Shown piece by piece: positions 2,266-16,104 of a stretch of DNA of 64,000 bases. The DNA comes from an uncultured Calditrichaceae bacterium (lineage in GTDB: Bacteria; Calditrichota; Calditrichia; RBG-13-44-9). The stretch lies in contig CAZBWV010000038.1 in assembly GCA_964495805.1 (NCBI GenBank), forward strand, positions 14,676-78,675, written 5' to 3'. The notes beneath the pieces are model-generated. The model saw only the letters and a program-made list of their open reading frames with translations. It was not told where the DNA came from and did not search any database. The first letter of the stretch is position 1. Each line of letters begins with the position of its first letter. The translations under genes and the position numbers were made by a program.

Positions 2266-4206
2266 TTATTCCACATACAGCAGAATCATGGTCACGTCAT
2301 CACTTAGCTCTTTTCGGGCACTGAACCGCCGAATAGCTTCCAGAATCAGCTCCTTAAGCTGATGGGGTGGTGTTCCGTAATGTTTCTTAATCAAATTCAC
2401 CAATCGCTGTTCACCGAATTCCTGATCGCGCTTATTTTTCACTTCGGTCACCCCGTCGGTGTACAGGATGAGATAATCGCCGGATTTCAGTTCCACGGTT
2501 TCCTGACGATATTGCTGATCGGGCAGAAATCCCAGCACGATGCCACCGGTATCCAGCTGGCGGACGGACAGGTCTTTGCGCACCAGCAGAGGCGGATTGT
2601 GCCCTGCATTGGTAAAAGTAAATCGGCGGGTATGCCGATCGATGACGCCAAAGAAGAAGGTCGCATAATACCCTTCTGCGGTGGTTTCGGTGAGCAGGTT
2701 GTTCAACCTGGCTACAATTTCCACCACCGGATAAATTTCCTTGAGCAGGCTCTTGAACCCCGCATAAAGCATCGCCATCAAAATGGAAGCAGGTGCTCCT
2801 TTGCCGGACACGTCGCCAATGGCCAGCCCCAGCATATTCTGTGAAGTACGGAACACATCGAAAAAATCCCCCCCGACAATACGTGCGGGAATGTTTACCG
2901 TGCTAATCTGGAACCCTTCGAAACGGGGTGGGCGCTCCGGTAACAGCGCCTTCTGAACACGGGAGGCAATAAGCAATTCGCTCTCCAGCCGTTTTTTCAT
3001 AACCGCTTCTTCAAACAGCTGAGCGTTTGCAATGGCTATGACCGCCTGGCTGGCAAACGTCTCCAGCAGTTCCAGGTCTGCGGGGGTAAAATGGTTCAGC
3101 AAATCGCTTTCCACGGCAATCACCCCCATCACCTGGTTGCCATACAATAGCGGCACGGTAAGCTGAGAACGAGTGGATGGCCGCACTGAACAATATTCCG
3201 GTGAGCGGGAGACATCATTGATGATGCTTGGCTTTTTGGTGGCAATCACTTTGCCGTAGATTCCTTTGTTCAACTTCAGGTGGATTTTGTCCAGCAGTTT
3301 CGGGTCGTATCCCCGGGTGACCACCCGACGTAACTCTTTGCGATGACGATCGATGAGAAAAATCCCCCCGGCATCGAAACTTACCAGCTGACTGATGGAA
3401 TCCATAATGGCGTTGAGCACCTCATCCAGTTTCAGACTGGCGGAAATTTTCTTCCCCACCTCCAGCAGCAGCCTATCCTGCAACGACTTCCGCTTAACTT
3501 CCGAATACAGCTGGGCGTTTTCCATAATGTCCGATGTCTTCTGAAATACGCGAATAAACAATTCCCGAATACTGTGGAAATAAATGTATCGATTCAAAGA
3601 ACTATCGAACAGCAGAAAACCGATATGGCCTTTAAAACTAATCATGGGGAAAAAATAATAGAACCGGCCTTCCGGGAGGGTACTAAGCAATTCGTCAATC
3701 AGGGGATGTTGCCCGCGCAATTTATGCAGCGGATAAAAATTTACATTCTCTTTGAACAGATTGAGAAATCCTTTTTTATTTTCTACCTTAATCAAACTGG
3801 GCAGGGGTAAATCCGCGGGATGGTAAGCCATCAGCTCATAGTCGCGTCCCCAGCAAAGATAAAACGCCCAGGCATGGTCGGAAAAATTTTCCTGAAGGAA
3901 TTTTTTAAATTTCTGAATCAGCACCGGGTATTCCAGAGTGGCATTCAGTTCCCGATTAAATTGCTGGAAAGAAGTGGAGATGCGATACAACTCCTGATAA
4001 AAATTTCGATCCACAAAATTCCGAATAAAACGGGTGATCTCTTCATAGTAATACAATCCGGGGATCAGGACCAGAAAGAATGCCAACAGCGAGGAATGAA
4101 CTCCCAACCAGGAGAGAAAAACGGAAACAAGCACAAACCAAAGGGCGAACAGTGCACTGGTTAGCAGAATGCGTAATGTTTTTTTAAAAAAGGGGCTTTG
4201 CTTCAC
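2266..4206 (-). CDS. GAF-domain PP2C/SpoIIE (RsbU-like) serine phosphatase with N-terminal TM helices
   Basis: GAF region followed by PP2C motifs VGGDFFD, IGDVSGKG, NAGHNPP, YTDGVTE, DDVT; GTG start. Confidence 0.88.
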   Translation of the reverse strand: MKQSPFFKKTLRILLTSALFALWFVLVSVFLSWLGVHSSLLAFFLVLIPGLYYYEEITRFIRNFVDRNFYQELYRISTSFQQFNRELNATLEYPVLIQKFKKFLQENFSDHAWAFYLCWGRDYELMAYHPADLPLPSLIKVENKKGFLNLFKENVNFYPLHKLRGQHPLIDELLSTLPEGRFYYFFPMISFKGHIGFLLFDSSLNRYIYFHSIRELFIRVFQKTSDIMENAQLYSEVKRKSLQDRLLLEVGKKISASLKLDEVLNAIMDSISQLVSFDAGGIFLIDRHRKELRRVVTRGYDPKLLDKIHLKLNKGIYGKVIATKKPSIINDVSRSPEYCSVRPSTRSQLTVPLLYGNQVMGVIAVESDLLNHFTPADLELLETFASQAVIAIANAQLFEEAVMKKRLESELLIASRVQKALLPERPPRFEGFQISTVNIPARIVGGDFFDVFRTSQNMLGLAIGDVSGKGAPASILMAMLYAGFKSLLKEIYPVVEIVARLNNLLTETTAEGYYATFFFGVIDRHTRRFTFTNAGHNPPLLVRKDLSVRQLDTGGIVLGFLPDQQYRQETVELKSGDYLILYTDGVTEVKNKRDQEFGEQRLVNLIKKHYGTPPHQLKELILEAIRRFSARKELSDDVTMILLYVE

Positions 4207-4559: not shown

Positions 4560-5462
4560 ATGAATTTATTCAAGCAAGTTGAAAATTGGAAGGACGTGCT
4601 GGATCGTCTTTCCGCCATCCGGGAACAAGAGGACTATACCCCCGAGAACGTGGAATACATTCGGGAGAGTCTGCAATCTCCCGACGAAAAAATTCGGGGT
4701 GGTGCAGCACTGGCGGCAGAAGGTTGCCTGCTGGAGCCGCACATTCTGGACCTGCTCATCCATCTGGCAGAAAACGATAGCAGTAACGCCATTCGCAAAG
4801 CCGCTCTGCAATCGCTGGGAGGCATTATTTACGAAGGTGTGATGCAGGATTTTGAATCGTCCACCGGGCCGGACACCGCCCTGGACGAATCTGAGGAGTG
4901 GGACGAAATTCAACTGGAAAGCTTGCGCGAGGATTACCTGCGCACCAAGAATCTGCTTTTCTCCATTCTGCAAAACGAAGAAGAAGATCTAGAAATACGC
5001 GAAGCGGCTCTGATGTCCCTGAGCAATTTAGGATTTCTGGAAGAGGTTCGCGAATGGATTTCCGATTTCATTCATATGCCGGAAGAATCCGCGCGACTGG
5101 TGGCATTACATGCCATGGGTAAATTCCCGCTCTATTGGATCCAGACTCTCAGCAAATTTCTGGAACCGGGACAACCCAAACCTCTTCTGTTAGAAGCCAT
5201 CAGCTCCAGTTATGCTTCGGATTCGGAACTACTGGCACGGAAGATCGAACAGCTCCTCTCCTCCGACGATCCGGATATTCTTTCGTACGCCCTGTTAACG
5301 CTGGCCAATCTGAACAAAACGGAAAATTTAGGCGAAATTTTACAGAACTTCAGCCTGCATCAGGATGAGCGGGTACGCAAAGCAGCACGAGAAGGGATTG
5401 AACACTTCACCCGACTCAATTTCGAACGCTACATCAAAGACGAATTTGGTTTTCAGGAATAG
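4560..5462 (+). CDS. HEAT-repeat protein
   Basis: Repeated acidic helical units (DEKIRGGAALA, NAIRKAALQSLG, LEIREAALMSL, ERVRKAAREGI). Confidence 0.75.
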   Translation: MNLFKQVENWKDVLDRLSAIREQEDYTPENVEYIRESLQSPDEKIRGGAALAAEGCLLEPHILDLLIHLAENDSSNAIRKAALQSLGGIIYEGVMQDFESSTGPDTALDESEEWDEIQLESLREDYLRTKNLLFSILQNEEEDLEIREAALMSLSNLGFLEEVREWISDFIHMPEESARLVALHAMGKFPLYWIQTLSKFLEPGQPKPLLLEAISSSYASDSELLARKIEQLLSSDDPDILSYALLTLANLNKTENLGEILQNFSLHQDERVRKAAREGIEHFTRLNFERYIKDEFGFQE

Positions 5463-5517
5463 CGATTCGGGAAAGTTTAACCGGATGTTTCATTTCAAGG
5501 AAGAAAACACCTGAATA

Positions 5518-5549
5518 CCGGCAGTTATTCTGCATGAAATAACTGCCGG
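5518..5549. terminator. Hairpin between the convergent HEAT and prk genes (probable bidirectional terminator)
   Basis: Perfect 12-bp stem ccggcagttatt / aataactgccgg with 8-nt loop. Confidence 0.7.
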
Positions 5550-5563
5550 AACAGGTACATTAT

Positions 5564-6496
5564 TTATTTTTCGGTTACCTTCAGCGTGTTCAACAGATGG
5601 TACACAATAAGCAGCTGAGTTAATGCCAGCGGATAGCTGATTTTTGTTACTTCACCATCCTGATATTCTCCGATGGTGGTGTTTCGCAACTCTTCAAATC
5701 CCGGTAAATGCCGCCAGATGGTCTCTTCCATTTCCTGAGCCTTTTCCGGCGGCGTGTCGCCGGTAATATGCAAAAAGTCCACCGGACGCCCCTCGTCGCG
5801 CCCAAGCGTGACTGAGATGCATTTGTTCCGCGCATTGGGTGTATCGTCGATGAAGTCGGAAAAATCGGGATGCGGAATGGTGGGACGCAGCACCAGATTC
5901 ACATTCAGATGCCCACCGGTTTCTTCCTTTTTCCCCTCCGGCCGATAGAAATTTACCACAATATCTGCATAGGAGCGCTGGGGACGGATGTAGGTTTTGG
6001 AATCGTGCTCCCTGGCTTTGATGGCTTTAAGCACTTCTTCTTCGGTGTAACCACGTTTGGTGGTATCCCGCTTTATTTTCCATTTAATGCGCAATTCTTC
6101 TTCCGGGTCCAGATACACTTTGACATCAAACACATCGCGCATCCGACGGGTGTAAAAAGGGAGCAATCCCTCAATAATCACAAAATCGCGTGGTTTCACG
6201 TACTCCGGCGGATCGAAATCGCCGGTGGAGTGGTTGTACACCGGTTTCAGGATCGGTTTGCCCTCCCGAAGCAGGCGGATGTGCTGCTCCATGATGTCGA
6301 TGTAGTTACAGTCCGGATGCAGGGCGGTAATACCCAATTCTTTACGCTGTTTCCGATTGTACTTGTGGTAATCATCCGCACAGATGTTGGTCACCCGGTC
6401 GGGTCCCAGAATTTTCTCAATCCCCTTGGAAATTGTCGTCTTACCAGCGGCACTATCCCCCACAATTCCCAGCATGATAGGTCCTTTTGGTCGCAT
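5564..6496 (-). CDS. prk: Phosphoribulokinase (cyanobacterial/Chloroflexi-like type)
   Basis: P-loop GIVGDSAAGKTT, ICADDYH, KPVYNHSTG, EGL, KIKRDTTKRGY. Start moved from the track's 6613 to ATG 6496, which follows an AAGGAG RBS. Lies in the RuBisCO cluster. Confidence 0.92.
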   Translation of the reverse strand: MRPKGPIMLGIVGDSAAGKTTISKGIEKILGPDRVTNICADDYHKYNRKQRKELGITALHPDCNYIDIMEQHIRLLREGKPILKPVYNHSTGDFDPPEYVKPRDFVIIEGLLPFYTRRMRDVFDVKVYLDPEEELRIKWKIKRDTTKRGYTEEEVLKAIKAREHDSKTYIRPQRSYADIVVNFYRPEGKKEETGGHLNVNLVLRPTIPHPDFSDFIDDTPNARNKCISVTLGRDEGRPVDFLHITGDTPPEKAQEMEETIWRHLPGFEELRNTTIGEYQDGEVTKISYPLALTQLLIVYHLLNTLKVTEK

Positions 6497-6621
6497 GACG
6501 TTTTCTCCTTCCTTTTTTATATTCCTGTGAAAAAAACACTCCTTTTCTGTCTTTACCCGAATATGGGCAAAGACTCTCTTTCCTTGTCCGGAAACTGACC
6601 GGCGAAGGCCCATGTTTCAGG

Positions 6622-7350
6622 TTATTTCTGCACTACTCTGCGAAACAGGTTCAAAGATTGAGCGTGTATGGTTTCCAGCAAGTTCAGATTGAATCCGGAA
6701 GCGCCCGGTGCCACTAAAATGGCATGGGCAAATGAGCTCCCGAAGGTGTAATCGTTATAAAACACCACCGTAGGAATTCCCGCTGCCACAGCCGCGCGAA
6801 GTCCTTCTTCGGAATCTTCCACTGCCAGGGTTTCTTCGGCAGCGTATCCGGTTTGCTCCAGACACATCGGATACAGTTTTCCTTCCGGGCCGGTCTTGGG
6901 ACCACTTTCTTTTCCCAGTATTACCCGGAAATGGGTGGCAAATTCGCTCAGCTGGTTCTGGAGCAGAGCCCGGATTTGCGTCTCGTAGGAGGTGGAGACA
7001 ATCGCCAGTTCCATGCCACGCTGGACCGCTTCGGCAATCAGTTCCCGGATACCCTCACGCAGGCGAAGCGTCGGTAAATATTTCTCGATGTAAATGCGCT
7101 GCTTTAACGGAGCAAACTTACTCACAATCTCTTCAATTTCCCCGGCGGGAAGACCCTGATCGGTCAGGGTCTTCCGCAACCGATTCACATTGCCCGGAAT
7201 AGGGAGCAGCTCCAGAAACTCCTCCCACGACCAGCGAATCGACAGTCCCAGCTGTTCCATGGCGTCGTTGCTGGCCGGGAGGTGACCGTACCGTTCACTA
7301 TCCACCAATGTTCCATCGACATCGAAAATCAGTAACTTCAATTCAGGCAA
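6622..7350 (-). CDS. cbbY: HAD-IA hydrolase, CbbY-like (xylulose-1,5-bisphosphate phosphatase)
   Basis: FDVDGTLVDSE motif I, LAIVST, AVEDSEEG; located between cbbM and prk; TTG start after a GGAG RBS. Confidence 0.8.
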   Translation of the reverse strand: MPELKLLIFDVDGTLVDSERYGHLPASNDAMEQLGLSIRWSWEEFLELLPIPGNVNRLRKTLTDQGLPAGEIEEIVSKFAPLKQRIYIEKYLPTLRLREGIRELIAEAVQRGMELAIVSTSYETQIRALLQNQLSEFATHFRVILGKESGPKTGPEGKLYPMCLEQTGYAAEETLAVEDSEEGLRAAVAAGIPTVVFYNDYTFGSSFAHAILVAPGASGFNLNLLETIHAQSLNLFRRVVQK

Positions 7351-7403
7351 CGCTTCACTCCTGCTTGATAAATGGGTCTCTGTTATGCGTCAAAACGTAT
7401 GGT

Positions 7404-8810
7404 TTATTCCAGAAAATCTTTCAGTTTTTCCCGCCATCCGGGATACAGGCGATCGGCGTCGTGCGGGAAGGAAACAAAAGCCCGGGCAAACGCGCGGTGT
7501 TCTTTGGCAAACTCAAACACATCCGCCCCTTCGCGCCACATCTGTTCGGCCTGGCGCATGGATTTGGCTCCTTCTGCCGGTCCGTCCACATGTCCGTAAC
7601 AGCCACCGCCAGCGGTCATAATCACGTTGGAGTGCCCCAGATTCTCGAAGAAACCGGGTGCGCGCAGGGCGTTCATTCCGCCGGAAATAATCGGCGTGGT
7701 GGGTTTCATACCCAGCCAATCCTGATGGTACATGGGTCCATCCGCCGCATCGGCTGTAATCATTTCGGCAATCATCTTGTCGTCCTTGTAACCTTCCATC
7801 TTCCCAAATCCCATGGTTCCCACATGGATTCCGGAGGCACCCTGCAACCGTGCCATTTTCGCCAGTACAAATGCCGAATAACCGCGGTTGGTGCGGGGAG
7901 AGGTCACCATTCCGTGACCGGCCCGGTGGTAATGCAGGAATTGATTGGGGAAGTGCCGTCGGGCAGTGGTAATCGCAGCGGGTCCACCGACAAATCCATC
8001 CACCAGAAAAGCCACGTGATGGGCAAATTCCCCGAACTGTTCCAGAATGTACTCTCCACGGGCAATCATTTCGAACGGATCATCTGCGGTAATGTTGGCA
8101 GAAAAGAGTTTGGCCTTGCCGGTCTTGTCCTGAGCGCGCTTCATGGCATCCACCACCAGGGGAATCACCTTCTTCATCGGAGCAAAAACCTGATTGCCCT
8201 GCGGTTCGTCATTCTTAATAAAATCGCCTTCCAGCCAGAACTCATAGGCTGCTTTGGCAAATGGCTCGGGTCGCAAACCCAGCTTGGGTTTAATGATGGT
8301 TCCCACAATAAAACCACCGTTCACCACCGGACGTCCCAGCACGCGCCACAAATCGGCAATTCCCTTGGAGGGTCCATCGAACAGCTGCAAATAGCGCGGC
8401 GGGAAATAAAAATCGTACATCTTGGCATATTCAATATCTGCCATTCCCTGGTTATTCCCAATGGCCAGAGTCAGAAACGACACAATCATTGCCCGTCCAT
8501 CGATGATGTTGCGATCGAACAGTTCCACCGGATAAGCGATTTTCATTTCTTCCTTTTCCGGGTCGATAAAATAAACCGTCGCATCGATTTTACGGGTGAA
8601 ATCGTCAGTCGTTTTCACCTCCACATTGGTGCCGGTGGAAGATTCCGCAGCAAAGTGCGCCGCCGCCCGTAAATAATCCCCGGGGGATTTCGGATCGGGA
8701 TAGTGTTTGGGATTGGGTTTCATCTTGTAGTAAGCCAGCACAAAATCCCCGCTGCGGATTAAATCCTCTTCTTTGAGATTCAGATTGGTGTACCGGAGAG
8801 ATTGATCCAT
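7404..8810 (-). CDS. cbbM: Ribulose-1,5-bisphosphate carboxylase/oxygenase, Form II
   Basis: MDQS start, [61 protein letters not shown]: the full catalytic set. AAAGGAG RBS; no small subunit nearby. Confidence 0.98.
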
Positions 8811-8907
8811 GATTAAACTCCTTTATGTTTTATAACTCCGTTATTTTTAAAATAAGACATGTGATATTTTTCTTTTTTTGAATATTCTATTCCAATATGG
8901 CAAACGT

Positions 8908-9897
8908 TTAATCGTATTGAATGGAACTGATGCGCATGAGTTTTTCGAAGGAATGATGCGATTCAATGTAGCGAATGGTACCGGTTTTTCCCCGCATGAC
9001 CATGGAGTGAGTCACGGCTCCGCGACCGGTGTACCGCACTCCTTTCAGGAAAGTGCCTCCGGAGATACCGGTGGCAGCAAAGAAGATGTCGTCGCTGGTA
9101 ATCAGCTCATCAACATTCAGTATGCGGTTGATGTCGTATCCCGCAGCCAGCACGTTCTCTTTTTCTTTTTCAGATTGAGGGTCCAACCGGGCTAATATTT
9201 CGCCACCCAGAATTTTAATCGCTGTGGCAGCCAGCACACCCTCCGGTGTTCCGCCGGTTCCCATCATCACATCCACATCGGAATCCGGAGAAACCGCCAT
9301 CAGCGCCCCGGCCACATCGCCATCGGTATGTAACTGAATGCGTGCACCCGCCTTGCGAATGTCCGCAATCAGTTGCTGATGCCGGGGTTTGTCCAGTACA
9401 AATACCACCAGATCGTCCACATCCTTACCTAATGCTTTGGCAATGTTTTTCAGATTATCTTCCACAGGTGCTTCCAGATCGATGACATTTCGGGCTTCCG
9501 GACCTACCACCAATTTTTTCATATAAAAAGCTGGTCCGGGATTAAACATGGTGCCCCGCGGGGCAATGGAAATGACCGAAATCGCATTGGGGCGTCCAAA
9601 AGCCAGCAAACGCGTCCCCTCCACCGGATCTACCGCCACATCCATTTTGGGACCCTTACCGGTACCGACCCGTTCTCCGTTGTAGAGCATGGGTGCCTGA
9701 TCTTTCTCTCCTTCTCCGATCACCACAATGCCATCGATGTCGATCACGTTAAAGCTCATCCGCATGGCATCCACAGCGGCGCCGTCTCCGGCTTCCTTAT
9801 CCCCCTTGCCCAGCCAGCGGGCAGCAGCCAGGGCGGCTGCTTCGGTTACCCGAACCAGGTCCAAAGCCAGATTTCGTTGAGGTGCTTCTTTCGCCAT
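8908..9897 (-). CDS. glpX: Class II fructose-1,6-bisphosphatase (probable FBP/SBPase)
   Basis: RVTEAAA, AVDAMR, VIGEGEKD, AVDPVEGT, DGDV, GGTPEGV. Confidence 0.95.
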   Translation of the reverse strand: MAKEAPQRNLALDLVRVTEAAALAAARWLGKGDKEAGDGAAVDAMRMSFNVIDIDGIVVIGEGEKDQAPMLYNGERVGTGKGPKMDVAVDPVEGTRLLAFGRPNAISVISIAPRGTMFNPGPAFYMKKLVVGPEARNVIDLEAPVEDNLKNIAKALGKDVDDLVVFVLDKPRHQQLIADIRKAGARIQLHTDGDVAGALMAVSPDSDVDVMMGTGGTPEGVLAATAIKILGGEILARLDPQSEKEKENVLAAGYDINRILNVDELITSDDIFFAATGISGGTFLKGVRYTGRGAVTHSMVMRGKTGTIRYIESHHSFEKLMRISSIQYD

Positions 9898-10026
9898 GAT
9901 TCTTTCTCCATATATTTATTTTGATTTCACCCGTGGTCTGCTTCGCATAGCTTCCCGAAACCGGGAACTGAGCAGACCCCACAGGTTTGGTTTTTTAGCC
10001 ACTGAATTGGAACAAACCGTACCGAT

Positions 10027-10707
10027 TTACACAGCTACTTCGCCAGAAATGGCACGATTGGCGGACTGGCGGATGTCATTCATTGCCTGGACAATATCCG
10101 GAGCACGGAAGATGGCACTTCCGGCTACCAGCACATTGGCTCCACTGCGCGCCACCTCCGCTGCCGTCTCGGGATTCACCCCACCGTCCACTTCCAGATA
10201 AATGTCTCGACCCACTTCCTGAATCATCCGGCGGGCGCGTGCAATTTTATTCAGCCCCTGCCGAATGAATTTCTGTCCCCCAAAACCGGGATTCACGGTC
10301 ATAATTAACAGCAGGTCCATGTCCTCCAATACGTCCTCGATGGTGCTCAGGGAAGTAGCGGGATTCAGGGAAACGCCGGCTTTAATCCCGTGCTGATGAA
10401 TGTTCTGGATGGTACGGTGCAAATGGGTACAGGCCTCCTGATGCACGGTCAGGATGTCGGCGCCCGCTTCCACATAATCGTCGATGTACAAATCGGGATT
10501 GGAAATCATCAGGTGCACGTCCAGCGGAATATCTACAATCCGTTTGATGGTTTTCACCATATTGGGACCAAAGGTCAAATTGGGAACAAAATGCCCGTCC
10601 ATTACATCGATGTGAATAAAATCGGCGCCGTTTTCCGCCACCCGGCGAACCTGCTCTTCCAGCTTCAGTAAATCTGCCGATAGAATTGAGGGTGCGATGA
10701 GAACCAT
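10027..10707 (-). CDS. rpe: Ribulose-phosphate 3-epimerase
   Basis: IAPSILSAD, HIDVMDGHFVPNLTFG, MTVNPGFGGQ, EVDGG, LVAGSAIF. Confidence 0.97.
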   Translation of the reverse strand: MVLIAPSILSADLLKLEEQVRRVAENGADFIHIDVMDGHFVPNLTFGPNMVKTIKRIVDIPLDVHLMISNPDLYIDDYVEAGADILTVHQEACTHLHRTIQNIHQHGIKAGVSLNPATSLSTIEDVLEDMDLLLIMTVNPGFGGQKFIRQGLNKIARARRMIQEVGRDIYLEVDGGVNPETAAEVARSGANVLVAGSAIFRAPDIVQAMNDIRQSANRAISGEVAV

Positions 10708-10751
10708 AATTGCCTCTTTTTCTGGTTAAGTGATCTGGTTGCGTGCCAGGA

Positions 10752-10808
10752 AACCAACCCGATGGAATCGGGAACCCTGACAATTCCCGATTCCACCATC
10801 GGGAGGTT
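10752..10808 (-). other. Long intergenic hairpin immediately after the fba stop codon
   Basis: ggaatcgggaa (10764-10774) pairs with ttcccgattcc (10784-10794), and cccgatgg (10758-10765) pairs with ccatcggg (10796-10803). Confidence 0.65.
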
Positions 10809-10809
10809 A

Positions 10810-11733
10810 TTATGCTTTGTTGGAACTTCCCAGCACATTGCGAATCTTGTGTTGTACCATTGCTTTCACCGCATCGCGGGCGGGTCCCAGATACTTACGC
10901 GGATCGAAATTTTCCGGATGTTCCCACAGTTCCTTCCGCACCGTAGCGGTAATTGCCAGACGAATATCCGTATCGATATTAATTTTGCACACGCCGTATT
11001 TGGCCGCCTCGCGGAGCATCTCTTCCGGCACACCGCGGGCACCACCAATCTTACCACCGTACTTGTTCGCCATCTCCACAAATTCCTGCGGAACCGAAGA
11101 GGCGCCGTGCAACACCAGCGGATATCCCGGCAGCAGTTCGGTAATCTTTTTCAGTCGCTCAAAATCCAGCTTCGGTTCACCGGAAAACTTGTACGCACCA
11201 TGACTGGTACCAATGGCAATCGCCAGCGAATCACATCCGGTTCGCTGAACAAATTCCACGGCCTGATCGGGATCGGTAAATACACTCTTCTCCGCCACGA
11301 CGTGTTCCTCGATTCCGGCTAATTGTCCCAGCTCCGCTTCGACCCATACACCTCGTTCGTGGGCATAATCCACCACTTTTTTGGTAATGGCAATATTTTC
11401 CTCGTAGGGCAAATGTGAACCGTCAATCATCACCGAAGTAAATCCACCGTCAATCACTTCCTTACAGATTTCGAAATTGGCGCCGTGGTCCAGATGCAGT
11501 ACAACCGGTACGTTGCTCTCTTCCACCGCTGCTTCCACCATTTTAATAATGTAGTTATGGCCGGCATATTTACGGGCACCGGCGGAAATCTGCAGAATCA
11601 CCGGCGAACGCTCTTCCTCAGCTGCCCACATAATTCCCTGCAAAATCTCCATGTTGTTCACGTTAAAGGCGCCAATGGCATACTTCCCTTCGTACGCTTT
11701 GGGAAAAATCTCTTTGGGTGTAGTTAATGGCAT
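10810..11733 (-). CDS. fba: Class II fructose-bisphosphate aldolase
   Basis: GAFNVNN, LHLDHG, SVMIDGS, EAELG, AIGTSHG, LVLHGASS, KINIDTD; start set at ATG 11733 after an AGGAGG RBS. Confidence 0.96.
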   Translation of the reverse strand: MPLTTPKEIFPKAYEGKYAIGAFNVNNMEILQGIMWAAEEERSPVILQISAGARKYAGHNYIIKMVEAAVEESNVPVVLHLDHGANFEICKEVIDGGFTSVMIDGSHLPYEENIAITKKVVDYAHERGVWVEAELGQLAGIEEHVVAEKSVFTDPDQAVEFVQRTGCDSLAIAIGTSHGAYKFSGEPKLDFERLKKITELLPGYPLVLHGASSVPQEFVEMANKYGGKIGGARGVPEEMLREAAKYGVCKINIDTDIRLAITATVRKELWEHPENFDPRKYLGPARDAVKAMVQHKIRNVLGSSNKA

Positions 11734-11815: not shown

Positions 11816-13831
11816 TCAGGCTTTTTGTTCCTTATACTGCTGGTACTTTTCCCGAATCAACGGGACCAGATGCTGGGGGGTGAATCCGTACGCTTCTTCC
11901 AGCTTCTGATAGGGTGCGGAATTGCCGAACCGGTTCAGACCGTACACAAAACCGTGGCACCCGGTGTATTTTTCCCACCCAAAAGTCACCCCTGCTTCGA
12001 TGGCCACACGAAATTCCACCTCCCCGGGGAGTACTTTCTCCCGGTATTCCCGGGGTTGCTCGTCAAACAGTTCGGTGGAGGGCAGGCTTACCACACGTAC
12101 TTTGAACTCCTGTTCCAGTTCGCGGGCAATCTTCAGAGCCAGATGGACTTCCGAACCGGTAGCGATGAGAATCATATCCGGTGTTTCCTGCTCGTTACCG
12201 TAAATAATGTACCCACCGCGTCGCACTCCTTCAGCGGAAGCAAGACGGGAACGATCCAGAACGGGAAGTTTTTGCCGGGTCAGGATGAGTGCAGTGGGAC
12301 GCTTCGTCTCTTCCATCGCCATTTGCATGGCGACTGCGGTTTCCGTGGCGTCTGCGGGACGCATTACAATGAAGTTGGGAATTGCCCGCAAAGATGCCAA
12401 ATGTTCCACGGGCTGGTGTGTGGGACCATCCTCACCCACATAGAAGGAATCGTGTGTGAACACATGCAAAACCGGGACATGCTGCATGGCACTTAACCGC
12501 AAAGCAGGACGCTCGTAATCGGCAAACACCAGGAAGGTGGCACCAAACGGGCGCAATCCGCCGTGTAGTGCCATTCCGTTCAGTAACGCACCCATGGGGA
12601 ACTCCCGCACACCAAAAGCAAAGTTACGTCCGGCGGGATTGTCAGGGGAGAAGTCACCCACTTTTTCCATAAAGGCACGGGTGGCGTTGGACGGTTCCAG
12701 GTCGGCTGAGCCACCCACCAGATGCGGTAACTGATCGGCCAGCGCTGCCAGCACTTTACCGAACGCCGCACGGGTAGCGATGGAATCGCCAGCGTTGAAT
12801 TCGGGCAGGTCAAACTTTTCCGGTAATTTGCCCTCTCCCACAAATTCCCACAATTTTTGAAACTGTGTATCGCCTTTTAATTTTTCCTGTAAACGCTTAT
12901 TCCATTCCGCTTCTGCCTGGCGAAGTTGATCGAAGCGGGAACGGAAGTAATCCACCACATCATCCGGTAAATAAAACGTTTTGTCGGGAGGTAATCCTAA
13001 TTTCTCTTTGGTTGCGGCAATTTCTTCCGGTGGAAGGGGGGCACCATGGGTTTCGTGGTCACCTTCGCGGGTAGCCGCACCCTTGGCCATTACCGTATCC
13101 CCGATAATCAGACTGGGTTTATCGGTAACCTGTTGGGCGGCCAGAATGGCGGCACGAATTTGTTCGTGATTGTGCCCGTCAATTTCCTGCACATGCCACT
13201 GGAATCCACGAAACACTTCGGCAATGTCGGTACTGTCCGCCCGTGTGGTGGGACCGGATATCTGAATTCGATTTCGATCGTAAAACATAATCATTTTCCC
13301 GATTTTCAGATGTCCCAGGATTGCCGAAGCGCCCAATGCCACCGGTTCCTGCAAATCGCCATCCCCGGCCAGCACATACGTGTAATGATTCATGATGTCT
13401 TCGCCCAGCATGGTGCGCAGCAGCACCTCGGCAATGGCCATACCGCCACCCATACCCACACCCTGCCCCAGCGGACCGGAAGTGGCTTCCACCCCGGGGG
13501 TCAAATCCGCTTCCGGATGACCGGGGGTTAAGCTGCCAAACTGACGAAATTCTTTTAAATCGTCTAACTTTAAATAACCGATCAGGGTGAGCAGGGAATA
13601 AAGTAGCATGGACTCGTGACCGGCAGAAAGCACAAAACGATCGCGATTAAACCAATCCGGATTCTCCGGGCTAAAACGAAGAAATTCCTTGAATACCACA
13701 TACGCCATATCAGCAGAGGACATGGCTCCACCAGGATGCCCTGAATTCGCTTTGCGGGTGGCATCCAGAATAAGTCCCTTGATAACCGCAACAACTTTCT
13801 GATCCATGGAAGCATTGGATTGTGTACTCAT
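11816..13831 (-). CDS. tkt: Transketolase
   Basis: SGHPG, DRFVLSAGH, TPGHPE, GPLGQG, GDGDLQE, THDSFYVGEDGPTHQP; probable start MSTQSN at 13831 (track starts at 13939). Confidence 0.96.
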   Translation of the reverse strand: MSTQSNASMDQKVVAVIKGLILDATRKANSGHPGGAMSSADMAYVVFKEFLRFSPENPDWFNRDRFVLSAGHESMLLYSLLTLIGYLKLDDLKEFRQFGSLTPGHPEADLTPGVEATSGPLGQGVGMGGGMAIAEVLLRTMLGEDIMNHYTYVLAGDGDLQEPVALGASAILGHLKIGKMIMFYDRNRIQISGPTTRADSTDIAEVFRGFQWHVQEIDGHNHEQIRAAILAAQQVTDKPSLIIGDTVMAKGAATREGDHETHGAPLPPEEIAATKEKLGLPPDKTFYLPDDVVDYFRSRFDQLRQAEAEWNKRLQEKLKGDTQFQKLWEFVGEGKLPEKFDLPEFNAGDSIATRAAFGKVLAALADQLPHLVGGSADLEPSNATRAFMEKVGDFSPDNPAGRNFAFGVREFPMGALLNGMALHGGLRPFGATFLVFADYERPALRLSAMQHVPVLHVFTHDSFYVGEDGPTHQPVEHLASLRAIPNFIVMRPADATETAVAMQMAMEETKRPTALILTRQKLPVLDRSRLASAEGVRRGGYIIYGNEQETPDMILIATGSEVHLALKIARELEQEFKVRVVSLPSTELFDEQPREYREKVLPGEVEFRVAIEAGVTFGWEKYTGCHGFVYGLNRFGNSAPYQKLEEAYGFTPQHLVPLIREKYQQYKEQKA

Positions 13832-13876
13832 GTTCGAACCTTTTGTTTTGGGTTTAACAAATGATGCTTTATTTGA

Positions 13877-13893
13877 TACAACCTTTATGCCAG
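13877..13893 (-). promoter_or_regulatory. Candidate sigma54 -24/-12 promoter for the cbb operon
   Basis: Minus strand CTGGCATAAAGGTTGTA versus consensus YTGGCACGrNNNTTGCW; GG-N10-G spacing is exact; -12 dinucleotide is GT rather than GC; about 45 nt upstream of the tkt ATG. Confidence 0.6.
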
Positions 13894-13982
13894 ATAGACA
13901 TGGGAACGATAAAAACACCGTTAAGCCGTATAGAAACAAATGGATGACGGTAATTTGCAGCGATCGGAAGAATCACACAGCT

Positions 13983-14010
13983 TGTGCCACACATGGCACA
14001 CCTGTGCCAT
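13983..14010. promoter_or_regulatory. Triple alternating half-site array (candidate activator binding site)
   Basis: GTGCCA 13984-13989, TGGCAC 13994-13999, GTGCCA 14004-14009, forming two overlapping palindromes at a 10-bp period. Confidence 0.65.
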
Positions 14011-14772
14011 GTATTTTTCTCCCCCTATAAAATCTGTCAAACCCTTCAAGGAGGAATTGTGTGAAGCGGCGATACTCGAAATGAATTAAATTTTTGCCCG
14101 AATATATGGTAGTTGTGTATAGTGGTCACGCTCAAAACAAGATTTTAATTTAATAATTGTTACATTGACAAAAAATAGATTGCATTTGGCCGACTTTCAT
14201 AAAATTAGATTTGACCCAGGAAACTTAGAAAAAACAAAAAGGTCATCATTAGAAATCAAAATATTAGATTGAATTCGTGTACCGGTCAAGTGGATTTTAG
14301 AGAAAACGAAATTCATCAAAAAGTTAAAATATGTACAAATGTGCGAACTCCATTTGCCCACGGTAAGGCGCCTTTGAGATTCAGCAATCCGTTAAACTTC
14401 TGAATGTCTTTCCGACCGAAGGAAGGTCACGTCCAGCGTTTTGTTCTCCACCGTGGCGTTGTCCCACATAGCTTCCGATGATGATGTGCCGGACACACGG
14501 GTCAACGGAATCATCCGCCATGCGATCTCAGGTGTCCTGATTGTAGCGAAAATTTTACATTTCCTTGCTTCGTGGATAGCTTATTGTGGCAAATCCAGTG
14601 TTTGTTTGTACAAATCAAAATACCATTGTTTCCGGTCAATTACATTTCACCACCTAACAATCCTGAGGATATATGCCATCATCGGGTATGGCTTTCCATT
14701 TTTTCCAGTTCTGCCCGGGTGTGTTTTTTGCAATCAGGTTTTTCTGCAAAAGGATTCAGTGGGTTAAAGCGG

Positions 14773-16104
14773 TTACAAGCCGTATTTTTTCATCAACCGA
14801 TAGAAGGTTCGGCGGGGAATCCCGGAAATCCGGGACGCTTCGCTGATGTTCCCACCCGCCCGGTGAATGTACTCGATCAGCGCCTGTTTTTCGTATTTTT
14901 CCATTAACCGGGAACGCTGACGCCGAAAGTCTCCGTCCGCTCGTACGTCCGGTTCCAGAGGGGCAAAAGTAATGGAAAGGTGTTCCGGTAAAATGGTGTC
15001 GCCCGTGCACAAAATGACCGCCCGTTCAATTACGTTTTCCAGTTCTCGCACGTTGCCGGGCCAGTGGTAATTTTTCAGAATCTCCAGCGCCTGATCGGAA
15101 ATCTTTTCCACCCGTTTGTTGAGCTTTTCCTCCGCGCGGGTCAAAAAGTGATAGGCCAGATAGGGAATATCCACCTTCCGTTCGCGTAGCGGGGGTAAAA
15201 AAATGGTAAACGTGTTAAACCGGTAAAACAGGTCTTTGCGAAACTGCCCCTGTTCAATGGCTTCTTCCAGATTTCGGTTGGTGGCAGCGATGATGCGTAC
15301 CTTCACATATTTCACTTCCGAAGAACCGACCGGCCGAATCTCTCCGGTTTGCAAGAACCGCAGGAGCTTCGCCTGTAAACTTAACTCCATGTCTCCGATT
15401 TCGTCCAAAAAGATGGTGCCTCCGTGGGCTTCTTCCAACAACCCTTTGCGGTCCTGTTCGGCACCGGTAAAAGCGCCCTTTTTGTACCCAAACAGTTCGC
15501 TTTCCATCAGCGAAGCGGTTAAAGCGGTGCAGTTCAGGGAAATGAATGGTTTGTCCCGCAAATGGCTGGCCTGATGGATAGCCCGGGCAACCATCTCCTT
15601 TCCGGTACCGGTCTCACCCCGCAGCAGAACTGTGGTGGGAGTCGGTGCGACACGCTTTACCAGTTCCATCACACTCTGCATCTGAGGCGACTTGGCTACC
15701 ATCCAGCGTGCATCGGGTAAATGCTGCTCCAGTTCCCGCTGAACGGTTAAATACCGCTCCCGGTACTCCTCCTTCTGCTTGCATTTTTCCACCAGCGCCC
15801 ACATAAAATGCGCGCTCTTCCCGTCGATGATTTCACACTGTTCCGATTTACACCGGTGTAACTGACGGGTTACTTCCCGGTCGCCGGTTACATTGACTGC
15901 AATATCCAGCCGGGGGTCGGCACAATAGGGTGCCCAGTGCCGTGCTACCGGAATATCGTGCTCCTGCGCAAAGCGAATGCCCGGTGCCTTCAGATTCTTA
16001 TCCACCACCGCCAGAATTTCCACTTCGGGCAGTTCTTGCAACAATTCCAGCAAATGCAAGCCGCCTTTCCCGGCTCCGACAACCAGTATGGTAATTGAGG
16101 ACAT
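14773..16104 (-). CDS. Sigma54-dependent transcriptional activator (bEBP) with N-terminal Rossmann-like domain and Fis-type HTH
   Basis: N-terminal ILVVGAGKGG...LAVVD; AAA+ motifs GETGTGKE, ELFGYKKGAFTGA, FLDEIG, AATNR, WPGNVREL; HTH GGNISEASRISGIPRRTFYRLMKKY. Confidence 0.95.
   Translation of the reverse strand: MSSITILVVGAGKGGLHLLELLQELPEVEILAVVDKNLKAPGIRFAQEHDIPVARHWAPYCADPRLDIAVNVTGDREVTRQLHRCKSEQCEIIDGKSAHFMWALVEKCKQKEEYRERYLTVQRELEQHLPDARWMVAKSPQMQSVMELVKRVAPTPTTVLLRGETGTGKEMVARAIHQASHLRDKPFISLNCTALTASLMESELFGYKKGAFTGAEQDRKGLLEEAHGGTIFLDEIGDMELSLQAKLLRFLQTGEIRPVGSSEVKYVKVRIIAATNRNLEEAIEQGQFRKDLFYRFNTFTIFLPPLRERKVDIPYLAYHFLTRAEEKLNKRVEKISDQALEILKNYHWPGNVRELENVIERAVILCTGDTILPEHLSITFAPLEPDVRADGDFRRQRSRLMEKYEKQALIEYIHRAGGNISEASRISGIPRRTFYRLMKKYGL

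Follow-up and report, generated by a model that had tools for sequence, protein, structure and literature searches.

We describe a phosphoribulokinase (PRK) gene, prk, and the Calvin-cycle operon that it closes in a 64-kb stretch of DNA from an uncultured Calditrichaceae bacterium (contig CAZBWV010000038.1), called the window below. The gene lies on the minus strand, encodes a protein of 310 amino acids (aa), and is the last of a same-strand cluster in the order tkt-fba-rpe-glpX-cbbM-cbbY-prk. We believe that the protein is a genuine PRK and that the finding is real but largely ordinary: this is a new member of a PRK lineage that is annotated and biochemically little studied. The features that an initial annotation of this DNA flagged as surprising are normal for the lineage, and automated annotation already names the gene correctly. 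The gene and its P-loop are located as follows.

5564..6496, minus strand: prk, phosphoribulokinase of the bacterial 9QKO-like lineage, type-II fold (NF005655, PDB 9qko, AlphaFold2 (AF2) model, ribosome-binding site)
6437..6460, minus strand: P-loop codons for GDSAAGKT, residues 13-20, with Ala17 at the site of plant Cys16 and cyanobacterial Cys19

The longest open reading frame (ORF) of prk extends to 6613. The start at 6496 is the right one in our opinion, because an AGGAG ribosome-binding site lies 8 nt 5' of its ATG and homologues are 308-312 aa long. Every motif listed in the initial annotation is found in the translation: GDSAAGKT (residues 13-20), ICADDYH (38-44), ITALHPDCN (56-64), KPVYNHSTG (84-92), KIKRDTTKRG (140-149) and NKCIS (224-228). 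The first of these is a Walker A motif (G-x-S-x-x-G-K-[ST]) and is joined by a Walker B motif, E109-G-L. There are only three cysteines, C39, C63 and C226, and they are the ones the annotation had read in ICADD, HPDCN and NKCIS. A scan for terminators and promoters around prk gave signal at chance level.

Placement among the phosphoribulokinases

Two published schemes (PMC5241800, PMC9978339) recognize three types of PRK, plant, bacterial and archaeal, and this lineage is not included in them. Pfam assigns the protein to PF00485 only, a joint family of PRKs and uridine kinases. It matches the NCBIfam model NF005655 along positions 5-315 of the 326 in that profile, with a score of 428 bits (cut-off 236). 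For class I CbbP, the model NF011997 gives 44.6 bits (cut-off 362), and the uridine kinase models also stay below theirs (NF004018, 108.6 against 180; TIGR00235, 102.5 against 220.3). In Proteobacteria, cbbM usually goes with the octameric, NADH-activated CbbP of class I. A PRK from another locus (L083), where it is the partner of a cbbM 81% identical to the window's, serves as a positive control for class I with 418 bits to NF011997; the window PRK is 29% identical to it. With the R. sphaeroides enzyme (1A7J) the window PRK has in common the reaction and the P-loop kinase superfamily, but the two match at 25 bits, and the class I description (equivalog model; 290-aa octamer with a GSSGAG-type P-loop) does not fit. 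The annotation had set the enzyme apart from class I CbbP, and in this it was right: the fold is the type-II fold of plants, cyanobacteria and archaea. By scores and by structure the protein groups neither with proteobacterial CbbP nor with the uridine kinases, and a grouping with either is what the annotation had named as speaking against its claim.

The full-length sequence matches in the PDB are to 9qko and 9qkp (384 bits, the 9qko alignment covering residues 5-305) and to 9qkn (362 bits). The cyanobacterial PRK 6gve matches at 204 bits, over window residues 2-209 only, and the scores then fall to 166 bits for the PRK of Methanospirillum hungatei, 144 for plant PRK and 84 for Udk. The AF2 model, a monomer made with 54 homologues, has a predicted local distance difference test score (pLDDT) of 93.4 and a predicted template-modelling score (pTM) of 0.92. 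It bears out a two-part fold with a kinase core and a C-terminal extension that forms an extended sheet. In Foldseek the model reaches a template-modelling (TM) score of 0.9 to 9qkp, 9qko and 9qkn, 0.77 to the M. hungatei PRK and, over the whole chain and ~350 columns, 0.70-0.75 to cyanobacterial and plant PRKs. These type-II matches (5b3f, 6kev, 6h7h; TM 0.70-0.77) run over ~320-360 columns, versus ~185 for Udk, and the class I enzyme 1a7j is not among the top 50 Foldseek matches.

The entries 9QKN (Gloeocapsa PCC 73106) and 9QKO and 9QKP (Chroococcidiopsis/Hyella PCC 6712), released 2026-04-08, are the only solved structures of the lineage. They are 54-56% identical to the window PRK over its full length and have the same P-loop (GDSAAGKTT), HPDCNY, KIKRDT.KRGY and C-terminal SYPLALTQLLI.YH. 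They also have the C-terminal domain in common with it: a hidden Markov model (HMM) of the lineage's C-terminus finds 9qko and 9qkn at 96-98 bits, together with the PRK of locus L084 and many bacterial representatives, and does not detect archaeal or class I sequences. The cyanobacterial and plant fragments ended at about residue 240, and this test has no bearing on them. These three proteins and those of Argonema and Aerosakkonema make up one tight cyanobacterial subclade (99%) that is nested within non-cyanobacterial branches; the window gene, by contrast, sits in the cbb operon of a Calditrichia-like bacterium. In the flanks of the Argonema antarcticum gene (10 kb each side) and of the Aerosakkonema sp. 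gene (~4 kb and 10 kb) there are no RuBisCO or cbb genes. We believe that the deposited label 'cyanobacteria specific PRK' is contradicted by the broad bacterial distribution set out below.

The canonical plant and cyanobacterial PRKs (Synechococcus 6HZK/6KEV, Thermosynechococcus 6GVE, Arabidopsis 6H7H) resemble the window PRK in fold and are ~45% identical to it in the kinase core, with all the ribulose 5-phosphate (Ru5P) and catalytic residues and the Cys55 equivalent in common. They differ in having a P-loop cysteine and a WIPCGRKLTC loop (Cys243/Cys249), neither of which the window PRK has; there is no CP12 in the window; and the C-terminal ~100 residues of the window PRK give no alignment to canonical PRKs when phmmer is run against full-length PDB chains. 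The archaeal enzyme of M. hungatei (5B3F) is alike in its type-II fold, its length of ~310 aa, its P-loop without cysteine (GDSGSGKS) and its non-Form-I RuBisCO partner. It is only 29% identical, however, it reads SITVDDYH and so has no Cys55 equivalent, its C-terminus is not matched by the lineage HMM, and it works in the reductive hexulose-phosphate pathway (PMC5241800) and not in a tkt/rpe/glpX cycle.

The annotation went on to call the enzyme cyanobacterial or plant in type, and here we disagree. A canonical PRK that lost its thioredoxin-target cysteine secondarily, after transfer into a Form II background, would account for the ~45% identity over the N-terminal ~200 residues, for the catalytic motifs common to both and for the Cys55 equivalent (C39) that is kept. 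But canonical PRKs align to residues 2-209 only, and in a neighbour-joining (NJ) tree of the N-domain (196 columns) the cyanobacterial and plant sequences form a clade of their own, with 96-97% bootstrap support, away from the window PRK. The lineage C-terminal HMM finds 9qko and 9qkn and not the archaeal or class I enzymes, with the restriction on canonical fragments already given, and the P-loop cysteine is missing across the lineage and in the archaeal PRK, which makes the state in oxygenic phototrophs the derived one. We consider a secondary loss very unlikely. In the full-length NJ tree (303 columns, 300 bootstraps) the group of the window PRK (100%) is sister to PRKs of Desulfobacterota (93%), and the L084 PRK and a Form I-linked PRK of Calditrichaceae (L010) are placed elsewhere. 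Judged by these comparisons, the window PRK is a member of a bacterial lineage that is distinct within the type-II fold and has its own C-terminal domain.

It is still less credible that the protein is a uridine or cytidine kinase, or some other sugar-phosphate kinase of PF00485. The idea draws on the fact that Pfam resolves nothing finer than this family, on the sub-threshold 103-109 bits to the udk models and on the chain name of 9qkn in the PDB sequence file, which is 'Uridine kinase'. Yet those scores are well under the cut-offs, and the same entry is titled 'cyanobacteria specific PRK from Gloeocapsa PCC 73106'. Uridine kinases (T. thermophilus 3ASY, human UCK2) are single domains of ~210 aa that match the N-terminal P-loop kinase core only (TM 0.52, 84 bits), and the window PRK has 100 further C-terminal residues. 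Their acceptor site reads DHYY with no YNH, where the window PRK has DDYH and keeps the Ru5P residues specific to PRKs. The gene also stands in a cbb operon, and 68 of the 79 genome loci with this PRK type have a RuBisCO large-subunit gene within the fetched flanks.

Catalytic residues and the missing cysteine

The Ru5P-binding and catalytic residues of plant-type PRK are Arg64, Arg67, Tyr103, His105, Arg159, Asp160 and Arg164 in Cr numbering (10.1101/422709). All seven equivalents are kept in the window PRK (R48, R51, Y87, H89, R143, D144 and R148, at a constant offset of 16), and in the alignment uridine kinase differs from the PRKs at these sites. The M. hungatei PRK, which likewise has no P-loop cysteine in the alignment, is enzymatically active in vitro (PMC5241800). 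From the residues and the operon context we infer that the window enzyme is active as an ATP-dependent Ru5P kinase, and we expect it to be a homodimer free of thiol control and, as is characteristic of type-II PRKs, of allostery by NADH or AMP.

The initial annotation was correct that the P-loop cysteine targeted by thioredoxin is missing, with Ala17 in its place. C39 aligns with plant Cys55, so that only one member of the Cys16-Cys55 switch pair is there, and the alignment shows no counterpart of the Cys243/Cys249 loop. As the annotation also said, the cluster has no CP12-like ORF; the CP12 hallmark (AWD.VEE core) occurs in none of the six frames of the 64-kb window, to which the search was confined. 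We do not agree that the absent cysteine is a notable loss. At residue 17, in the P-loop, the 120 nearest protein clusters have A, T or S but never C, and GDSGCGKS occurs in only 2 of 150 family representatives, one of them a canonical cyanobacterial sequence. The missing cysteine is the ordinary state because it is absent from all 120 of these clusters and from the M. hungatei PRK. The window PRK thus carries the signature of its lineage, a P-loop GDS[AG][ATS]GKTT without cysteine, a conserved C39 and HPDCN. In our opinion the P-loop cysteine is a speciality of oxygenic phototrophs, and the plant and cyanobacterial switch was derived there, not lost here.

One non-canonical member of the family does have the cysteine. 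This protein, P0182 from a JGI metagenome (326 aa), reads GDSGCGKST; its best PDB match is the N-domain of 9QKO, with a weak C-terminal match, and the P-loop cysteine may have appeared in it independently.

Thiol regulation might also have been kept by way of a pair particular to the lineage, Cys39 with Cys63 or Cys226 in place of plant Cys16-Cys55. Of the 120 nearest clusters, all have C39 and 93% have C63; 9qko and 9qkn also contain HPDCN, and in plants it is the equivalent of C39 that enters into the mixed disulfide with thioredoxin-f (10.1101/422709). We think such a switch is improbable, if less so than the two alternatives above: C226 is kept in 46% of the clusters only, the carriers of the lineage are mostly non-phototrophic and have no obvious light/dark redox signal, and the conservation of C39 may reflect mere active-site packing.

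The Calvin-cycle operon

The other genes of the cluster are listed here, with model scores against their cut-offs.

6622..7350, minus strand: HAD phosphatase, CbbY-like, a probable xylulose-1,5-bisphosphate phosphatase (4uav from Arabidopsis, 84 bits; 4uar from R. sphaeroides, 74 bits)
7404..8810, minus strand: cbbM, Form II RuBisCO, 468 aa (NF010002, 825 bits vs 489)
8908..9897, minus strand: glpX, class II fructose/sedoheptulose bisphosphatase (TIGR00330, 397 bits vs 259)
10027..10707, minus strand: rpe, ribulose-phosphate 3-epimerase (TIGR01163, 304 bits vs 213)
10810..11733, minus strand: fba, class II fructose-bisphosphate aldolase (TIGR01859, 392 vs 343; start at the first Met, MPLTTPKE)
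11816..13831, minus strand: tkt, transketolase (TIGR00232, 748 bits vs 682; start MSTQSNAS)

The annotation's statement that prk lies beside a Form II RuBisCO is borne out by the score of cbbM in the list. Its best PDB match is the R. palustris Form II enzyme 4lf1 at 790 bits; the Form II structures together (4lf1, 5c2c and 9rub from R. palustris, Gallionella and R. rubrum) score 730-790 bits, versus at most 316 for other forms. The window's cbb cluster has no small-subunit ORF, and Rfam matched no RNA family in the window. Models for phosphoglycolate phosphatase score the HAD protein far under their cut-offs, and it is probably an enzyme that clears a RuBisCO inhibitor rather than CbbZ.

The window DNA occurs almost completely in hydrothermal-vent metagenomes. 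Two papers, of 2019 and 2025, have reported putative Calvin-cycle capacity in metagenome-assembled genomes (MAGs) of Calditrichaeota (PMC6759342, PMC12501874). In a heterotroph, PRK and Form II RuBisCO could, rather than support autotrophic growth, be a CO2-dependent electron sink or a shunt for pentose and nucleoside salvage. Form II RuBisCO has a redox-balancing role in purple bacteria, and the ORF list of the window contains no evident hydrogenase, sox, other lithotrophy or carboxysome genes; the genome evidence, however, covers 64 kb only. Cultivated Calditrichota are heterotrophs, but Calvin-cycle autotrophy has been proposed for Calditrichaeota MAGs (both PMC6759342). The operon has the full regenerative set (tkt, fba, rpe, glpX) together with CbbY, and the arrangement is conserved in relatives. 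We regard a non-autotrophic role as unlikely on balance, though it deserves to be taken more seriously than the other alternatives considered so far.

Distribution and mosaic origin

For the family as a whole, an exhaustive search found 6661 cluster representatives (50% identity) at E <= 1e-3; at E <= 1e-30 there were 572. The survey of distribution, made on one-genome-per-species data, places the lineage in Calditrichia, Desulfobacterales, Desulfovibrionaceae, Chloroflexota, KSB1 and many Acidobacteriota, as well as in some alphaproteobacterial MAGs and a few cyanobacteria. Bacteroidota-like MAGs carry it too. The description of the enzyme as Chloroflexi-like in the annotation was apt in that Chloroflexota carry the same PRK type, by the genome search and in the full-length tree.

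The RuBisCO next to this PRK varies. Form I with a small subunit and CbbX is found in Acidobacteriota, Chloroflexaceae, Kouleothrix and alphaproteobacterial MAGs, and Form I also accompanies the PRK in KSB1 and Calditrichaceae. Desulfobacterales have a Form III-like RuBisCO without a small subunit. The annotation treated the Form II pairing as exceptional, but it recurs in two Desulfovibrionaceae MAGs and one Desulfocapsa MAG, making three in Desulfobacterota, and in loci L080 and L084. L080 (GCA_024276455.1), with a PRK 79% identical, has the same eight-gene order as the window, cbbM and the upstream activator gene described below included. In L084, a Bacteroidota-like contig, Form II cbbM and a lineage PRK (51% identity, NF005655 365 bits) lie at 5288-11407.

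The nearest genome match is a Calditrichia MAG, L001, which has the same cbbM-HAD-prk order and whose PRK shows 96% protein identity and 83% DNA identity to the window's. Within the one syntenic contig of 2.2 kb (JALWDQ010000909) the adjacent HAD/CbbY protein is only 72% identical and its DNA 70%. This uneven divergence may reflect recombination within the operon.

The annotation's word 'mosaic' fits the operon well. Its PRK sides with Desulfobacterota (the 93% node), and its cbbM is 79-82% identical to Form II genes of Bacteroidota MAGs and of a MAG labelled Deferribacteres, with 75-77% identity to the genes of Proteobacteria. The best evidence comes from comparing two loci. The Form II RuBisCOs of L083 and L084 are 78-81% identical to that of the window, yet the PRKs beside them are of different classes: at L083 (10001-12382) the cbbM at 81% adjoins the class I PRK used above as a control, and at L084 it adjoins a lineage PRK. 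We take this as direct evidence that PRK classes have been swapped beside near-identical cbbM genes, and we believe that PRK and RuBisCO modules have recombined repeatedly.

Two other arrangements were seen. In two MAGs of Desulfobacterales/Deltaproteobacteria (L004, 5605-6912; L008, 2764-4077) a RuBisCO without a small subunit lies directly 5' of a lineage PRK and adjoins glpX. These RuBisCOs are at or near the Form III cut-off (TIGR03326, 501 and 489 vs 497), and they are candidates for a Form III-type or form-I-related variant of the Calvin cycle. Two Chloroflexaceae MAGs (L016, 10001-11890; L017, 10001-14057) have two lineage PRK genes per cbb cluster, adjacent in the first and with tkt between them in the second. 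The members of these pairs are not recent duplicates, because they fall in different subclades of the tree.

A sigma-54 activator upstream of the operon

Three features lie upstream of tkt.

13877..13892, minus strand: putative sigma-54-type -24/-12-like element TGGCATAAAGGTTGTA, ~45 nt upstream of the tkt ATG
13983..14010, minus strand: overlapping inverted repeats ATGGCACAGGTGTGCCAT and TGTGCCATGTGTGGCACA, a candidate activator-binding site
14773..16104, minus strand: gene next upstream of the operon, for a sigma-54 enhancer-binding protein whose N-terminal domain is Rossmann-like (Pfam Sigma54_activat 240 bits, AAA_lid_14, HTH_8)

The activator gene has the same position in L080, and homologues of ~50% identity precede RuBisCO in most Acidobacteriota loci, in KSB1, in Desulfovibrionaceae and in another Desulfobacterota locus. 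Full-length homologues adjoin cbb clusters in 38 cases. The arrangement with the activator gene directly before a cbb cluster was noted at L080, L003, L008, L015 and ~35 loci of Acidobacteriota. In the N-terminal ~110 residues the homologues conserve GAGxGG...DVTGD. A PDB search with the N-domain as a single sequence was uninformative, and the weak Rossmann matches come from a profile search only, to NAD(P)-binding domains of acylating acetaldehyde dehydrogenase, DapB and Gfo/Idh/MocA (best E 2e-4).

The L080 counterpart of the -24/-12-like element, CGGCACGAAAGTTGTG, lies 47 nt before tkt, and other loci also have a similar element after the activator gene. The core pattern GGCAYN5TTGY has two matches in 64 kb, one of them the element upstream of tkt, and we consider the position informative since the pattern occurs only twice. 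A strict TGGC-N8-TGC pattern has no match upstream of the operon. The TGTGCCA-N4-TGGCAC core of the inverted repeats (TGTGCCA/TGGCACA) is conserved in L080. No LysR/CbbR-type gene is found among the ORFs flanking the cluster. The spacer between activator and tkt (13832-14772) is ~940 nt in the window and ~250 nt in L080; the extra part is AT-rich, has no Rfam match and contains only an antisense ORF of 108 aa (14441-14767).

The initial annotation proposed that control is mainly transcriptional. This is plausible and gains indirect support from the conserved activator and the promoter-like element, from which we infer a probable sigma-54 regulation of the operon. A full-text literature search, which was not exhaustive, found no report of sigma-54 control of cbb operons. 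A bolder idea, and one we hold only tentatively as a possibility with the odds against it, is that a dedicated sigma-54 enhancer-binding protein, and not the classical LysR regulator CbbR, turns on the cbb operons with lineage PRKs in Calditrichia, KSB1, Desulfovibrionaceae and many Acidobacteriota, and that its Rossmann-like N-domain senses NAD(P)(H) or a related metabolite. If true, CO2 fixation would be under a redox-sensing transcriptional control not described before, in place of the thiol and CP12 switches that phototrophs use and of the NADH allostery found in class I PRK. The conserved activator is, in our opinion, the lead most worth following.

The enzyme in its setting

We are confident that prk encodes an active Ru5P kinase of the 9QKO-like lineage that closes the cbb operon and feeds Form II RuBisCO, with no thiol or CP12 switch and with control most likely at the level of the operon. 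The gene, its family placement, its conserved residues, the fold, the context and their recurrence in other genomes are established. The enzyme would supply ribulose 1,5-bisphosphate to the adjacent RuBisCO. It should be unable to form the thioredoxin-controlled Cys16-Cys55 disulfide and, with no Cys243/Cys249 loop, to dock CP12, which would be the normal condition of the lineage and not a loss. Because it has neither the disulfide nor the docking loop, flux would most likely depend on how strongly the operon as a whole is expressed, and the probable promoter is one of the sigma-54 type, served by the conserved upstream activator. The operon is a mosaic in which PRK and cbbM have different nearest relatives, and its host is a Calditrichia-related bacterium of hydrothermal vents.

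Several points weigh against this. The conservation of C39 and C63 would also suit a different thiol switch. The prk gene was in no RNA-seq run searched, and the literature search, with the limit already stated, found no paper on the 9QKN, 9QKO and 9QKP structures. RPI, GAPDH and PGK are not in the 64-kb window, so a complete cycle is not demonstrated within it. The deep nodes of the N-domain tree have less than 25% support, and we make no claim as to whether the archaeal or the plant-type clade is the sister group of the lineage. The -12 part of the promoter-like element reads TTGT where the consensus is TTGC, and its pattern is not enriched in the window.

As it was first written the finding changes little, the missing cysteine being normal for the lineage and the Calvin-cycle potential of Calditrichaeota already published. 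It is important to realize, however, that the published three-type classification omits a large lineage. In Chloroflexota, Acidobacteriota, Desulfobacterota, KSB1 and Calditrichota its genes neighbour RuBisCOs of Form I, of Form II and of a Form III-like kind with no small subunit, and on one Bacteroidota-like contig the neighbour is a Form II enzyme. Near-identical cbbM genes stand beside either class I or lineage PRKs, and the PRK type therefore seems freely exchangeable, a point of interest for pathway engineering. Through the conserved sigma-54 activator it should be possible to test how non-proteobacterial chemoautotrophs regulate CO2 fixation.

Beyond the 3' end of the operon, a HEAT-repeat protein gene (4560-5462, plus strand) is convergent to prk, and its product has faint, sub-threshold matches to HEAT proteins of the phycobilisome lyase/NblB type. 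It is adjoined by the gene for a membrane GAF-SpoIIE (PP2C) phosphatase (2266-4206, minus strand).

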